The position numbers and the translations under genes are program-made. The notes beneath the pieces were generated by a model that saw only the letters and a list, made by a program, of their open reading frames with translations, was not told the origin of the DNA and searched no databases. A stretch of DNA of 64,000 nt from a virus (taxonomy: Duplodnaviria > Heunggongvirae > Uroviricota > Caudoviricetes): IMG/VR virus record IMGVR_UViG_3300025133_000025; one strand, given 5' to 3'. How positions within the stretch are numbered: the first letter of the stretch is position 1; each line of letters opens with the position of its first letter. Shown here piece after piece: positions 17,645-27,737 of the stretch.

Positions 17645-17720
17645 TTGGAGGGCCATCCGGGATTTGAACCCGGGACGTGGGGATTAAGAGTCCCTTGTTC
17701 TACCAGCTGAACTAATGGCC
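17645..17720 (-). tRNA. tRNA-Lys (anticodon CTT), CCA encoded
   Basis: manual fold: 7-bp acceptor GGGCCAT/ATGGCCC, D arm GTTC..GAAC, loop CTCTTAA, T arm CCGGG-TTCAAAT-CCCGG. Confidence 0.75.
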
Positions 17721-17730
17721 CAGATACTTT

Positions 17731-17994
17731 TTACTTTTTGAAGAAGAGAGGTTGGCTGCCCGGAGCTGCCGGAACTGCATCTTCTGCCAACACGTACTTC
17801 TGATACGAGATCGCGATCTTTCCGTCAGGCAGCTTAGTTTCAACTTCGACCAGAATCTTATCAGGTGGCTCAGCTACAATTTCGTATTCACCGAGAATTG
17901 ATGGGCGTTGTGTGCGTGTCATATGCGCCTCCTGTATTCTTTGAGATCCTTGCGGAGCTCTGCCTTGATCCTTCGTGCAGTTTCTCCCCGCCAA
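17731..17994 (-). CDS. hypothetical protein
   Basis: ORF track 87 aa. Confidence 0.35.
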   Translation of the reverse strand: MAGRNCTKDQGRAPQGSQRIQEAHMTRTQRPSILGEYEIVAEPPDKILVEVETKLPDGKIAISYQKYVLAEDAVPAAPGSQPLFFKK

Positions 17995-18224
17995 GTCGTT
18001 GCGTTTGAGAGAAAATACAACACAACAGATTCGCCATCGTCCAGACCGTACTGTGATGTAAAGTCATCCAAATAAAGCATTGCATTCAAATACGGTTGGG
18101 CGTGAGGAGAAACATTCTGCCAGTCAGTTAGAATCTCTTCAGTAATTTTCCAAATCGGTCGCATCTTACTCTCCCTAGCAGCTAATGTACTGTGTATGGA
18201 AACCAGCGTGACTTCCATCAACAA
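17919..18224 (-). CDS. hypothetical protein
   Basis: ORF track 101 aa; overlaps neighbours, so true starts are uncertain. Confidence 0.35.
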   Translation of the reverse strand: MLMEVTLVSIHSTLAARESKMRPIWKITEEILTDWQNVSPHAQPYLNAMLYLDDFTSQYGLDDGESVVLYFLSNATTWRGETARRIKAELRKDLKEYRRRI

Positions 18225-18414
18225 CGTAGCGAATGAGTCGAAAATTGTTTCCTCGTCGAGGCTCGCCCTTCATGGAAGCCACTACATCATCGATGCTAGG
18301 TGCCAAAACCTTGCCCAGGCGCTGTCCTTCACGGTACAAAAACCCAGCTCGTGTCAGCCTGAAGTGGGTTCCTGCCTTTGTCACAATTTCCATGTTCTTC
18401 ATTATCTTCCTCAT
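18175..18414 (-). CDS. hypothetical protein
   Basis: ORF track 79 aa. Confidence 0.35.
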   Translation of the reverse strand: MRKIMKNMEIVTKAGTHFRLTRAGFLYREGQRLGKVLAPSIDDVVASMKGEPRRGNNFRLIRYVVDGSHAGFHTQYISC

Positions 18415-18420
18415 TTTAAA

Positions 18421-18497
18421 TGGTCAGGGTGGCAGGTCTCGAACCTGCGAACCTCCGGACCCCAAGACCGGCGCTCTACCAACTGAGCTACACCCTG
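18421..18497 (-). tRNA. tRNA-Pro (anticodon TGG), CCA encoded
   Basis: manual fold: acceptor CAGGGTG, loop CTTGGGG, T arm GCAGG-TTCGAGA-CCTGC. Confidence 0.7.
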
Positions 18498-18519
18498 TTA
18501 TTTTCCTTCAAGTTCTTCA

Positions 18520-19098
18520 TCAAGTTCGCCAAGCCCGAGCATTCTCTCTATCTAGCTGCGCAAGGTGCTCAAGCCCAAGATCGTATTGAGCCTCATACAT
18601 GCGCCACAAAGAGTCAACATTCGTATCGTACGAAGGTGAATGCTTCGAAGCATTCAAGGCGAGCATAAACGATTCTCTCTCACCCAAATACATGGAAAAT
18701 TTGTCAACCTTTCCACGCTTAAGAATTGACCCAACACTGGCCTTGACATTTGCAATTCTGTCAGCCAGCTTTACAATCACAGCATTTTCAACACTTGCTG
18801 TTTTTGGATACGTGTTCTGGTGCCGCTCTTTTCGAGTTTCACCCGGGCCGTCAGAGACTGCCCAGACAAGCTGGGCAATTTGCCAACCAAACAACTCTTC
18901 GATATCCTGCACAGTATCGCTTGTGTCTTCAATGTTGTCATGGAGAATTACTGCAATTCTCAGCGTCTTTTCCATGATCCCAACAGAGACAAGCACATCA
19001 TGCGCATCACGAAGGTGCTTCAAATATGAAAAATCTCCATACAGCACACCATCGAATTTGTCTTCTGCATGCTTCCAAGCTTTGCTAATTCTATCCAT
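18520..19098 (-). CDS. HD-domain phosphohydrolase
   Basis: H ... HDNIEDT ... D metal-binding signature. Confidence 0.6.
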   Translation of the reverse strand: MDRISKAWKHAEDKFDGVLYGDFSYLKHLRDAHDVLVSVGIMEKTLRIAVILHDNIEDTSDTVQDIEELFGWQIAQLVWAVSDGPGETRKERHQNTYPKTASVENAVIVKLADRIANVKASVGSILKRGKVDKFSMYLGERESFMLALNASKHSPSYDTNVDSLWRMYEAQYDLGLEHLAQLDRENARAWRT

Positions 19099-19121
19099 TA
19101 TCTATGTTTCTATTTCGAATT

Positions 19122-19197
19122 TGGTGGAGACAAGGGGGATCGAACCCCTGACCTGCTGCTTGCAAAGCAGCCGCTCTCCCAACTGAGCTATGTCCCC
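19122..19197 (-). tRNA. tRNA-Cys (anticodon GCA), CCA encoded
   Basis: manual fold: acceptor GGGGACA/TGTCTCC, anticodon stem CTGCT/AGCAG, loop TTGCAAG. Confidence 0.75.
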
Positions 19198-19204
19198 AAA
19201 AGCT

Positions 19205-19333
19205 TTAAAAGAACAGTGCCTTAATGATCAGAGCTGCGCCACCAAACAAAACCAAATTTGCAATGATGCCAACTACAATAAGAACAGCGCCTCCCTTGAA
19301 GAAGGTGCCAAAGAAATCGTCGTCGTTATCCAT
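19205..19333 (-). CDS. small hydrophobic protein (42 aa, MDNDDDFFGTFF...)
   Basis: AAAGGAA RBS 7 nt upstream; lies between a promoter motif and tRNA-Cys. Confidence 0.3.
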   Translation of the reverse strand: MDNDDDFFGTFFKGGAVLIVVGIIANLVLFGGAALIIKALFF

Positions 19334-19355
19334 GTTCATTTCCTTTCATTCCTGT

Positions 19356-19388
19356 TTATATTGTACAATGTAGTTTCCAGCGCGGAAA
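19356..19388 (-). promoter_or_regulatory. phage promoter motif (TTTCCG-N14-TTGTACAAT)
   Basis: conserved architecture; upstream of the small ORF and tRNA-Cys. Confidence 0.4.
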
Positions 19389-19396
19389 CATGCAAT

Positions 19397-26260: not shown

Positions 26261-26295
26261 GGTTACTCCAGTTTTTGCGGTTTGATTGCCTATCT

Positions 26296-26325
26296 CTATT
26301 ATACAACTACATTTCTTTCACGGAG
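26296..26325 (-). promoter_or_regulatory. phage promoter motif (CTCCGT-N14-TGTATAAT)
   Basis: conserved architecture. Confidence 0.4.
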
Positions 26326-26344
26326 ATGCTCTCTGGCAAGCTCT

Positions 26345-26572
26345 TTAGTTCTTCACAGATCGATAGCCAGCAGTCCTTGCATTCTTCTCAGTTTCAAAAC
26401 ACCATTCTGCAACTGTCTGCCAGTAGTAACCACTTTCCGTTGTATGATACACCATAGATTCAAAGTTTCCCTTGATGGGAAACTCCTTTGTACAATGGCC
26501 CTTTGTATCTGGAAGATGAGCACACCCTGACAAAAGTAGGAGCATAGTGAGTGTGATAAAAAGCTTCTTCAT
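26345..26572 (-). CDS. lipoprotein
   Basis: internal Met MKKLFITLTMLLLLSGC with lipobox. Confidence 0.5.
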   Translation of the reverse strand: MKKLFITLTMLLLLSGCAHLPDTKGHCTKEFPIKGNFESMVYHTTESGYYWQTVAEWCFETEKNARTAGYRSVKN

Positions 26573-26593
26573 TGTTTCTCGTGCATCTTGATT

Positions 26594-26673
26594 TGGTTGG
26601 GTTGGATGGATTTGAACCATCGTGCAACCGGCTACCCTTTCAACTGCTTATCAGGCGGAGGGGATACAACCCA
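26594..26673 (-). tRNA. tRNA-like element or degenerate tRNA, identity unresolved
   Basis: clear T arm GATGG-TTCAAAT-CCATC, acceptor TGGGTTG/CAACCCA and CCA, but no canonical D or anticodon arms could be folded by hand. Confidence 0.3.
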
Positions 26674-26678
26674 ATGAT

Positions 26679-26754
26679 TGGTTGCGGAGGGTGGATTCGA
26701 ACCACCGATTTCCGGCTTATGAGGCCAGCGAGATAACCACTTCTCCACTCCGCA
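26679..26754 (-). tRNA. tRNA-Met/Ile2 (anticodon CAT), U1-A72, CCA encoded
   Basis: manual fold: acceptor TGCGGAG/CTCCGCA, anticodon stem CTGGC/GCCGG, loop CTCATAA, T arm GGTGG-TTCGAAT-CCACC. Confidence 0.7.
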
Positions 26755-26840
26755 TTAAAAGTTTGGTACTATCGGGGCGTTAATCCGAATCTTCCTTGTT
26801 ACAAACAAGGGCTTTACTTTAAGCTATAGTACCATTTATT

Positions 26841-26916
26841 TGGCTCCCGGGGAGGGACTTGAACCCCCAACCACCGTGTTAACAGCACGGCGCTCGACCA
26901 ATTGAGCTACCCAGGA
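26841..26916 (-). tRNA. tRNA-Asn (anticodon GTT), U1-A72 as in E. coli tRNA-Asn, CCA encoded
   Basis: manual fold: anticodon stem CCGTG/CACGG, loop CTGTTAA. Confidence 0.75.
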
Positions 26917-27008
26917 AAAATTTATCTATTCAACTATCAATGATCCTTTGGTTCATTTAAGTATTCAGCTGTGTGCTGTTACAACCAAAAGATATCAAAA
27001 GCCATATC

Positions 27009-27374
27009 TCACGATTCAAATTCATCAATTTCCTTGATACTGTCAAGGAAAGCCAGTAGTTCTTCATACTGCGAACGTGTAAAAATGCGCTTTTCATCAT
27101 CAGTCAAAAACTGATAATCTGTTACAGGTTCAAAGCTGTAAAGAAGATGATTTGCAATTACACCCTGCAAAGCTTCTGGAAGTTGAAAATCAGTCTGCTT
27201 GCTCATCATGGTGCTCCTTACAGTGTGGTTCCATTCGTCCAAAGCCTGGAAGTCGATATCCGGGTTGCCCGCATGAAAAGCATACGTACATGCTCTTTGT
27301 TTCAATATGCCTAACAATTGCTTGCACAATCTTTCTCCTTCTTGAAATTTGGGCAGAGCAATGTGCAACAGCAA
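27009..27374 (-). CDS. hypothetical protein 121 aa
   Basis: ORF track. Confidence 0.45.
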   Translation of the reverse strand: MLLHIALPKFQEGERLCKQLLGILKQRACTYAFHAGNPDIDFQALDEWNHTVRSTMMSKQTDFQLPEALQGVIANHLLYSFEPVTDYQFLTDDEKRIFTRSQYEELLAFLDSIKEIDEFES

Positions 27375-27584
27375 ATTAAGCTGAGTAATCTCAGCAGCGA
27401 CTACCTCACCACTCTGCCCGTGACCTTCCGACTCGTGTCCGCCCCATAGGGTTGGTTCTTCACGTTACGGTCATGTATGCTTACTCACCCTGGAGCCGCA
27501 TAAGCCTGTTTGTTTGCCTTCTCTTGCTTTACGGGTTCCGGCCAGCCCGCGCAACCTTAACGCAGGTGCAGGCGTTCCTGTTTA

Positions 27585-27656
27585 GTAAAATGGTAGGAAT
27601 TGAACCTACGACACCTGGCGCCAAATGCCAGTGCTCTACCACTGAGCTACACTTTC
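27585..27656 (-). tRNA. tRNA-Gln (anticodon TTG), no encoded CCA
   Basis: manual fold: anticodon stem CTGGC/GCCAG, loop ATTTGGC, T arm GTAGG-TTCAATT-CCTAC; G1-A72 mismatch. Confidence 0.6.
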
Positions 27657-27661
27657 AGGAA

Positions 27662-27737
27662 AACATCCCAGCAGGTCTCGAACCTGCATTTCCGACATCT
27701 CTTGCCGGTGTCCTGCCAAATTAGACGATTGGGATGC
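27662..27737 (-). tRNA. tRNA-like gene with Glu/Asp-type D arm but non-canonical anticodon loop AAGAGAT (no U33); identity unresolved
   Basis: acceptor GCATCCC/GGGATGT, D stem GTC/GAC, anticodon stem CCGGC/GTCGG, T arm GCAGG-TTCGAGA-CCTGC. Confidence 0.45.

Follow-up and report, generated by a model that had tools for sequence, protein, structure and literature searches.

In phage T4, the activities of a polynucleotide kinase, a phosphatase and the RNA ligase Rnl1 repair tRNA-Lys that has been cut by PrrC (PMC7824862), and in jumbo phages tRNAs, RNA ligases, polynucleotide kinase, phosphoesterases and an HD-type alarmone phosphodiesterase have been described as counter-defence (PMC7824862; Iyer et al., 2021). 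Changes in the anticodon loop allow phage tRNAs to escape from anticodon nucleases of the host (van den Berg et al., 2023, PMC10264068), and tRNAs of phage T5 act against PARIS and retron-PtuAB (PMC11464382; PMC11555353). Small alarmone hydrolases (SAHs) undo the attachment of pyrophosphate to the tRNA CCA end by toxSAS toxins and restore the aminoacylation of such tRNA (10.1101/2021.04.30.441581); CapRel is an antiphage system acting by pyrophosphorylation of the tRNA CCA, and a phage SAH neutralises toxSAS toxins (PMC9712102). The stretch of 64,000 nucleotides analysed here (IMG/VR record IMGVR_UViG_3300025133_000025, Caudoviricetes; referred to as the window) contains a phage tRNA island at positions 17646-27737, which is an already described type of feature, here found in a new lineage. 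The interpretation favoured with moderate confidence is that this island is polycistronic and, together with RNA-repair enzymes encoded around it, would form a module for both the supply and the protection of tRNAs.

The tRNA genes were called on the whole window with ARAGORN in its default mode and with the Rfam tRNA model RF00005 (gathering score, 29 bits), supplemented by relaxed ARAGORN runs in the -ps85 and -mt (mitochondrial) modes. Default ARAGORN predicted 15 tRNAs, all of them on the minus strand and within 17646-27737, with the anticodons Lys-CTT, Pro-TGG, Ala-TGC, Ile-TAT, Arg-CCT, Tyr-GTA, His-GTG, Thr-TGT, Ser-GCT, Val-TAC, Leu-CAA, Met-CAT, Asn-GTT, Gln-TTG and an odd "Leu-GAG". 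Thirteen of the 15 also matched the Rfam model, Tyr-GTA and Ser-GCT being called by ARAGORN alone. Two more loci exceeded the gathering score in Rfam, namely Ser-TGA at 24902-24998 with 37 bits and, at 26764-26833, another Thr-TGT with 45.1 bits; they were recovered by ARAGORN in the -ps85 and -mt modes, respectively. The E-values of the tRNA matches, which range from 1e-14 to 2e-3, rule out chance, and in the window neither ARAGORN nor Rfam found a tRNA on the plus strand or outside 17646-27737. The island holds 19 loci in total, namely 17 tRNAs supported by ARAGORN and/or the Rfam gathering score and two tRNA-like elements, one of 155 nt and one without a D arm. The minus-strand array that a preliminary description of the stretch had placed at 17645-27737 was thus confirmed, but its count of 18 loci was too low since the second Thr-TGT had been missed, and the gene that it had read as tRNA-Cys(GCA) is tRNA-Ala(TGC). 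Fifteen of the loci are as follows, the other four being listed with the non-canonical elements below:

17646..17721, minus strand: tRNA-Lys(CTT), CCA encoded (ARAGORN; Rfam, 65.6 bits)
18421..18497, minus strand: tRNA-Pro(TGG), CCA encoded (ARAGORN; Rfam, 60.5 bits)
19122..19197, minus strand: tRNA-Ala(TGC), CCA encoded (ARAGORN; Rfam, 70.2 bits)
19865..19941, minus strand: tRNA-Ile(TAT), loop CUUAUGA with unusual G37, CCA encoded (ARAGORN; Rfam, 57.7 bits)
22305..22381, minus strand: tRNA-Arg(CCT), CCA encoded (ARAGORN; Rfam, 71.6 bits)
22821..22908, minus strand: tRNA-Tyr(GTA), type II, CCA encoded (ARAGORN)
23385..23460, minus strand: tRNA-His(GTG), CCA encoded (ARAGORN; Rfam, 64.4 bits)
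23773..23848, minus strand: tRNA-Thr(TGT), CCA encoded (ARAGORN; Rfam, 65 bits)
24902..24998, minus strand: tRNA-Ser(TGA), type II, G73 and CCA encoded (Rfam, 37 bits; ARAGORN -ps85; fold)
25258..25346, minus strand: tRNA-Ser(GCT), CCA encoded (ARAGORN)
25459..25534, minus strand: tRNA-Val(TAC), CCA encoded (ARAGORN; Rfam, 68.6 bits)
25542..25628, minus strand: tRNA-Leu(CAA), CCA encoded (ARAGORN; Rfam, 58.7 bits)
26679..26754, minus strand: tRNA-Met(CAT), CCA encoded (ARAGORN; Rfam, 65.8 bits)
26841..26916, minus strand: tRNA-Asn(GTT), CCA encoded (ARAGORN; Rfam, 62.6 bits)
27585..27656, minus strand: tRNA-Gln(TTG), no CCA (ARAGORN; Rfam, 56.4 bits)

In line with the earlier statement that most of the loci encode CCA, this triplet is present at 15 of the 19 loci, the exceptions being tRNA-Gln, the second tRNA-Thr, the 155-nt element and the "Leu-GAG" locus, which is referred to below as the A33 element. 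The cluster spans 10.1 kb, and the tRNA loci share the orientation of the flanking open reading frames (ORFs). Interleaved with them are approximately 25 small accessory ORFs, a DNA ligase gene and a gene for a SAH. The tRNA-Met(CAT) is elongator-like, with a U1:A72 pair and an anticodon stem devoid of GGG/CCC. The G at position 37 of tRNA-Ile(TAT) was found in none of five other phage tRNAs of this type, four of which have A and one U at this position, and tRNA-Pro(TGG) contains a U31-U39 mismatch. As a separate observation, the base at position -1 of tRNA-His is A and base 73 is U, with no G-1 encoded, the bacterial norm being G-1:C73; Thg1-like tRNA-His guanylyltransferases are encoded by two relatives of the phage (loci L012 and L013), and no Thg1 homologue was found in the window. 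Directly downstream of tRNA-Gln lies an ORF-free stretch of 210 nt (27375-27584, minus strand) with a terminator-like hairpin at 27380-27395; this stretch has no Rfam match and a fold z-score of -0.95.

A gene embedded in the array may connect it to the repair of tRNA 3' ends:

18520..19098, minus strand: small alarmone hydrolase (Mesh1/SAH, HD_4), 192 aa, between tRNA-Ala and tRNA-Pro (Pfam and PDB matches)

The preliminary description had recognised this product as an HD hydrolase, which is correct as far as the HD protein is concerned; judged from its sequence it is, more precisely, a single-domain SAH of the Mesh1 type. The protein matches Pfam HD_4 with 34 bits (cut-off, 27), and its best PDB matches are Drosophila and human Mesh1 (HDDC3) and bacterial SAHs. 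It contains the catalytic motif H..HD..ED..KLADRxxN, and 13 homologues agree without exception at the residues H28, H53, D54, E57, D58, D113, R114 and N117. From its family membership it is predicted to hydrolyse the 3'-pyrophosphate of (p)ppGpp, (p)ppApp or tRNA. A SAH gene is located directly between tRNA genes also in a relative with 47% identity (locus L014), and in a survey of approximately 80-85 viral loci, several unrelated contigs had a SAH gene inside or next to a tRNA array. No report of a SAH gene placed between tRNA genes was found in the literature. Since SAHs can reverse the pyrophosphorylation of the tRNA CCA, the presence of this gene strengthens the interpretation of the island as protecting translation, and its location between tRNA genes suggests a testable role in the repair of pyrophosphorylated tRNA ends.

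Further candidates for tRNA maintenance are encoded around the island:

9982..10536, plus strand: P-loop polynucleotide-kinase-like protein, 184 aa (Pfam AAA_33, 46 bits; Walker A motif GLPGSGKS)
10538..11719, plus strand: Rnl1-family RNA ligase, 393 aa (Pfam RNA_lig_T4_1; PHROG 562, 1.4e-45; KLDG at K87)
12395..13045, plus strand: HAD_SAK_2 RNA-repair phosphatase, 216 aa (Pfam, 95 bits; DVDGV at residues 8-12)
16035..16892, minus strand: calcineurin-like metallophosphoesterase, 285 aa (Pfam Metallophos, 42.7 bits; PHROG 246)
34961..35935, minus strand: RlaP, an RNA-repair-pathway nucleotidyltransferase of the Pol-beta type, 324 aa (Pfam PF10127, 46.9 bits)
42461..43705, minus strand: second Rnl1-like RNA ligase, 414 aa (Pfam RNA_lig_T4_1, 59 bits; KEDG at K164)

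HAD_SAK_2 is the "Swiss Army Knife RNA repair" family of HAD proteins. The catalytic motifs are intact in the kinase (Walker A), the phosphatase (DxDx(T/V)) and both ligases (KxDG), and the parts of a T4-type healing-and-sealing system are present with a P-loop 5'-kinase, a HAD 3'-phosphatase and two copies of Rnl1 that carry KxDG. Kinase and phosphatase are not fused as in Pnkp but are separate genes, between which the first Rnl1 gene and three small ORFs are located. The encoded proteins are predicted to provide the activities of the T4 Pnkp/Rnl1 pathway with the kinase and the phosphatase split. Regarding the interpretation given in the preliminary description, the phage genes of the window (see below) support a phage tRNA island and the genes listed above a dedicated RNA-repair set around it, whereas the view that host defences targeting translation have been a major selective pressure is an inference from gene content only.

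A direct-repeat search revealed a 45-nt intergenic motif that reads TCCGYnnAA-N11-KTATAATAR on the minus strand and has the shape of an extended -10 promoter. It has nine matches in the window, compared to 0.8 expected, which are always located upstream of co-oriented genes and include the following copies:

24313..24341, minus strand: promoter-like motif TCCGTTTAA-N11-GTTATAATAG
26296..26324, minus strand: promoter-like motif TCCGTGAAA-N11-GTATAATAG
28254..28282, minus strand: promoter-like motif at the upstream island edge
870-898 and 8346-8374, plus strand: further motif copies
15613-15641, 40104-40132 and 59030-59058, minus strand: further motif copies

The copies at 28282, 26324 and 24341 lie directly upstream of ORFs, and the motif probably represents an early or middle promoter class of the phage. 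The island would be transcribed from this phage-wide extended -10 promoter family as at least three polycistronic units. Since each unit mixes ORFs and tRNAs, the latter must be excised from polycistronic RNA; they would be cut out of the transcripts by host RNase P and other processing nucleases, and most of them need no CCA addition because the CCA is encoded. In the favoured interpretation, the phage tRNAs would be expressed, processed and aminoacylated during infection.

The codon usage of the phage bears on the question of what these tRNAs are for. A cognate phage tRNA exists for its top codon in the families of lysine (AAG, 72% of the codons of the family), threonine (ACA, 47%), alanine (GCA, 38%), proline (CCA, 36%) and serine (TCA, 27%), and under strict wobble rules the tRNA set reads approximately 38% of all codons. 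During infection, the phage tRNAs may top up or replace the host pool, as they would match the codons preferred by the phage and also cover AUA and AGG, two codons that tend to be poorly served in many bacteria. In addition, tRNA-Lys(UUU) is the classical target of the anticodon nucleases PrrC and PARIS, and the combination of a Lys-CTT gene with the predominance of AAG among the lysine codons would make the phage less dependent on this tRNA. In the proposed mechanism, the tRNAs and the nearby enzymes would constitute a module that keeps translation going while the host turns against its own tRNAs. Cuts made by anticodon nucleases would be healed and sealed, as in T4, by the kinase, the HAD phosphatase and the Rnl1 ligase, damaged ends would be processed by the phosphoesterase and the RlaP nucleotidyltransferase, and the SAH may strip toxSAS/CapRel-type pyrophosphate from the tRNA 3' CCA or, alternatively, degrade alarmones.

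Codon supply is equally compatible with the evidence, and supply and insurance do not exclude each other. It is considered unlikely, however, that the tRNAs merely fit the codons of the phage to an ill-suited host pool and that the repair and SAH genes are independent modules. Compensation of codon usage is the most widely accepted hypothesis (PMC10264068), and it would account both for the cognate phage tRNAs of the top codons in five amino-acid families and for the enrichment of the set in U34 family-box tRNAs (Pro, Ala, Thr, Ser and Val) that read several codons each. It fits less well that ATA, which makes up only 5% of the Ile codons, has its own tRNA, that four loci are unlikely to decode at all, and that at least six genes for RNA repair or tRNA-end repair co-occur within the same 35 kb. 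Replacement of a decaying host pool is very improbable. Here, the phage would shut off or degrade the nucleic acids of the host, whose tRNAs would be lost by turnover in the course of a long infection, and late translation would be sustained by the phage tRNAs with no defence involved. This idea is discussed in literature that PMC11555353 and PMC11025619 cite, and a large genome with its own genes for nucleotide metabolism and replication would fit a heavy takeover of the host, but no host-degrading nuclease was identified in the window, and the healing-and-sealing enzymes and the SAH would be left unexplained.

Several observations also weigh against a combined supply and protection module. 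The repair cluster is located on the opposite strand at a distance of 4.6 kb from the nearest tRNA, and its linkage to the island is loose. Apart from the tRNA for the rare ATA codon, that for AGG also serves a codon used infrequently by the phage (14% of the Arg codons). A tRNA within 1 kb was found at about 8 of 85 SAH loci, which is not clearly above random placement in tRNA-rich genomes, and a generic scan for sigma-70 promoters and terminators revealed no enrichment.

Four of the 19 loci are non-canonical:

22393..22547, minus strand: 155-nt tRNA-like RNA, no CCA, discriminator U (sequence, fold, and ARAGORN after insert swap)
26594..26673, minus strand: D-armless tRNA-like element, ends in ACCA (Rfam, 28.2 bits with a gathering score of 29; fold)
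26764..26833, minus strand: second tRNA-Thr(TGT), no CCA (Rfam, 45.1 bits; ARAGORN -mt; fold z-score -4.9)
27662..27737, minus strand: A33 element, anticodon loop AAGAGAU, no CCA (ARAGORN "Leu-GAG"; Rfam, 31.6 bits; fold z-score -3.4)

Three of these had already been noticed in the preliminary description as a long tRNA-like gene, a degenerate tRNA-like element and a tRNA with a non-canonical loop, and all three exist. The 155-nt element has an acceptor stem in which 6 of 7 bp are formed, a D arm and a canonical T arm (GCAGG-UUCGAAU-CCUGC), but a hairpin of 91 nt takes the place of the 7-nt anticodon loop. When this insert was swapped for a 7-nt loop, default ARAGORN called the remaining body as a standard tRNA. 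The 91-nt rod alone folds more stably than 197 of 200 shuffled sequences (z = -2.5), whereas the fold of the whole element is unremarkable (z = -1.6). A covariance model of the element (R1), applied to related loci (first 1.5 Mb, later another 0.7 Mb) as well as to T4, detected no homologue in the 2.2 Mb of related loci, where only ordinary tRNAs were matched, and a pattern scan of IMG/VR (D arm, 95-125 nt, T loop) gave no match either. Among the assemblies that carry an identical HD protein, the sole single-nucleotide polymorphism is located at T-loop position 59 of this element; as the four assemblies are 99.98-100% identical, they provide no covariation signal for it.

Various known RNA types were considered for the 155-nt element and rejected. 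A group I intron would require a core of more than approximately 200 nt, compared to an insert of 91 nt, and no match to the Rfam model Intron_gpI was obtained even at E < 5. A bulge-helix-bulge intron, in which two 3-nt bulges on opposite strands flank a 4-bp helix, is excluded since both 3-nt bulges are on the same (5') strand of the predicted rod, and since no excision register, as read by hand, gives back U33. The best matches to transfer-messenger RNA (tmRNA) and YrlA models reached 21-26 bits, compared to gathering scores of 47 and 69; the acceptor stem has G3:C70 instead of the G3:U70 of tmRNA, and with regard to YrlA no TROVE domain turned up among the scanned window proteins, which were a subset of the ORFs. 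The element is no repeated mobile hairpin, as a second copy is absent, and no paralogue of the A33 element, as the identity of 59% between them is no higher than for any pair of tRNAs here.

In the D-armless element, the acceptor stem is perfect over its 7 bp, the T arm is good and the variable region is long; 4 nt replace the D arm, and the loop CUGAUAA sits on a weak anticodon stem in which 2 of 5 pairs are non-standard. No homologue of it was detectable in the 2.2 Mb of related loci. The A33 element folds into a cloverleaf with a short variable loop, which is incompatible with a bacterial tRNA-Leu; U33 is almost universal in tRNAs. The second tRNA-Thr(TGT) has a G + C content of 41%, lacks G18G19, has the T loop UUAACGC and looks mitochondrial. 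The four loci probably do not decode; the most likely options are duplicates that have decayed, signals for processing, or stable RNAs that resemble tRNAs in the manner of T4 "species 1". Whether the array is partly junk, with at least these four loci being functionless because they are decaying copies or have hitch-hiked in a hyperplastic region, deserves serious consideration, although on balance this is doubted. It would agree with the lack of detectable homologues of the 155-nt and D-armless elements, with the score of the latter below the Rfam threshold and its defective anticodon stem, with the A33 that is incompatible with normal decoding, and with the very fluid tRNA content of the relatives. 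In contrast, the acceptor and T arms are intact in all four loci, the 91-nt insert forms a rod more stable than nearly all of its shuffled versions, the D-armless element has retained its perfect acceptor stem and ACCA, and the tRNA cluster of T4 includes an expressed tRNA-like stable RNA (annotated as such in NC_000866). At the other extreme, the four loci might be expressed non-decoding mimics, acting as decoys or sponges for host nucleases or toxins that target tRNA or as scaffolded regulatory RNAs similar to species 1, while the tRNA-embedded SAH would be a tRNA 3'-end repair enzyme directed against CapRel-type toxSAS; this joint proposal is distinctly unlikely.

The phage origin of the locus is evident from window genes of phage type (PHROG and Pfam), which encode a DnaE polymerase, ribonucleotide reductase, thymidylate synthase, Rnl1 and a DnaB-like helicase. 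No virion genes are located inside the window, whereas the relatives carry rIIB, lysozyme and tail-size genes, and lifestyle markers, which would bear on the virulent nature suggested in the preliminary description, were found in the window in neither direction. Four independent metagenome assemblies hold the window sequence at 99.98-100% identity, and the HD protein is encoded on a contig of 179 kb. A megablast search of the island against 50,697 deposited phage records gave no match, and the identity of the DnaE polymerase to proteins of these phages does not exceed 31%; a blastn search for distant similarity to the island retrieved only generic tRNA similarity. No relative was found by a ligase-based search in IMG/VR, and a scan of metagenomes yielded none closer than 43% identity among the matches listed. 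The source is a novel uncultured phage with a genome of at least 179 kb that is known only from metagenomes and belongs to an unsampled marine-type lineage.

The relatives permit a view on the history of the island, in which the DNA ligase named in the preliminary description serves as an anchor:

20004..21416, minus strand: ATP-dependent DNA ligase, 470 aa (PHROG 114, 2.6e-14; homologues with 45% identity are named DNA ligase)

Its matches to the Pfam families DNA_ligase_A_M and A_C remain under the cut-off. In metagenome-derived phages with an approximately 45% identical ligase, no tRNA occurs within 10 kb of the ligase gene; these loci were of no use for covariation. In one of them (locus L010), the ligase (44% identity) and a homologue of the gene at 30645-33287 for a protein similar to the major vault protein (MVP; 43% identity) are 0.7 kb apart with no tRNA, compared to 9 kb here, and most of the small island ORFs have no homologue in the ligase-sharing relatives. 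The tRNA-free ligase locus of the relatives and the difference between 0.7 and 9 kb indicate that, specifically in this lineage, the island was inserted or expanded between conserved genes. Two tRNAs each were present in the 20 kb fetched for relatives with a 67-70% identical HD gene, and more than 30 in a relative whose HD gene is 47% identical; this range of 2 to more than 30 tRNAs illustrates the fast turnover of tRNA content. Two observations were made on these loci in passing. In the relative with a 70% identical HD gene (locus L012), a tRNA-Leu(UAA) at 12430-12738 contains a group I intron in the anticodon (Rfam, 51.9 bits), and in a relative with a 47% identical HD gene (locus L015), a homologue of translation initiation factor IF3 is encoded at 8171-8683 inside an array of more than 30 tRNA genes.

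Among the remaining proteins encoded in the island, the three lipoproteins predicted in the preliminary description were confirmed by their lipoboxes, and the small membrane and Cys-rich ORFs mentioned there were found as well:

21791..22051, minus strand: lipoprotein, 86 aa, lipobox MLSGC
25901..26260, minus strand: lipoprotein, 119 aa, lipobox FLAGC
26345..26572, minus strand: lipoprotein, 75 aa, lipobox LLSGC (Pfam LPAM_1)
23563..23757, minus strand: Cys-rich ORF of 64 aa, 10 Cys arranged as CxxC pairs, absent from the gene calls of the public assemblies

The 75-aa lipoprotein is kept in relatives, with 49% (tblastn with the L012 query) or 55% (window query) identity in L012 and approximately 30% in L014. 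Its precomputed Pfam label "ArfC" was not reproduced by a Pfam search, which recognised the lipobox motif only, and the protein is treated here as a conserved phage lipoprotein. Further Cys-rich ORFs are present in the island, as are several small ones in which one or two hydrophobic segments occur. A 121-aa protein encoded immediately upstream of the ligase gene (21419-21784, minus strand; PHROG 13746) has an H-x-D...H pattern (IAYHKD...HWRVN) that, read by eye, recalls the metal site of 2OG-Fe(II)/cupin proteins.

Some genes outside the island were recorded as well. At its upstream edge, a 156-aa protein (28321-28791, minus strand) has 54% identity to a homologue in L012, a weak match to PHROG 289 ("GTP-binding domain") and no Pfam match. 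An ORF of approximately 120 aa at 29445-29805 (minus strand) has a G + C content of 67%, compared to 47.7% for the genome, and looks like a recent gain from a high-GC organism. The MVP-like gene mentioned above (minus strand) codes for an 880-aa protein in which a major-vault-protein shoulder domain (Pfam MVP_shoulder, 9.7e-22) occurs along with vault-repeat and SPFH domains. No PHROG family corresponds to this protein, and its best PDB matches are eukaryotic major vault proteins (E approximately 1e-17, residues 492-872); a homologue of vault proteins in a phage is unusual.

When compared to known systems, the island resembles the T4 cluster in its co-oriented tRNA genes that are interleaved with small ORFs, but it contains 17 tRNAs instead of the 8 tRNAs plus rnaC and rnaD of T4, and the kinase and phosphatase, which in T4 form one Pnkp polypeptide, are separate genes. 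T4 rnaC (species 1) is a stable RNA of 139 nt whose ends pair and which combines a canonical T arm with a long hairpin arm; it is located 126 nt downstream of tRNA-Arg, with the 119-nt rnaD (species 2) between them directly following tRNA-Arg. The 155-nt element likewise adjoins tRNA-Arg, although upstream of it rather than downstream. The two RNAs are alike in architecture and not homologous (the covariance model reached 15 bits on part of rnaC), and the complete D arm of the 155-nt element has no counterpart in this likeness; the rod-bearing RNA with its tRNA body is nevertheless a possible counterpart of the T4 species 1 RNA.

With the islands of jumbo phages (PMC7824862), the locus shares the large phage genome, roughly 18-22 tRNAs, RNA ligases of the ATP-grasp type, kinase, phosphoesterases and an HD alarmone phosphodiesterase. 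It differs from these systems in that neither RtcB nor a Ro/TROVE protein was found among the proteins scanned, and in that the genome has no close relative among the 50,697 deposited phages. The unusual anticodon loops (Ile-TAT with G37, Pro-TGG with U31-U39) and the presence of Lys-CTT instead of Lys-TTT recall the phage tRNAs that evade nucleases, and purely by this analogy the tRNAs described here might be nuclease-resistant. The SAH shares the HD_4/Mesh1 fold family and the catalytic residues with PaSpo of Salmonella phage SSU5, MESH1 and ATfaRel; in contrast to these, its activity and substrate are predictions, and it sits directly between tRNA genes. With its private tRNA set, split Pnkp-like healing enzymes, two Rnl1 ligases, RlaP and SAH, the locus adds an example to the "translation insurance" packages of phages.

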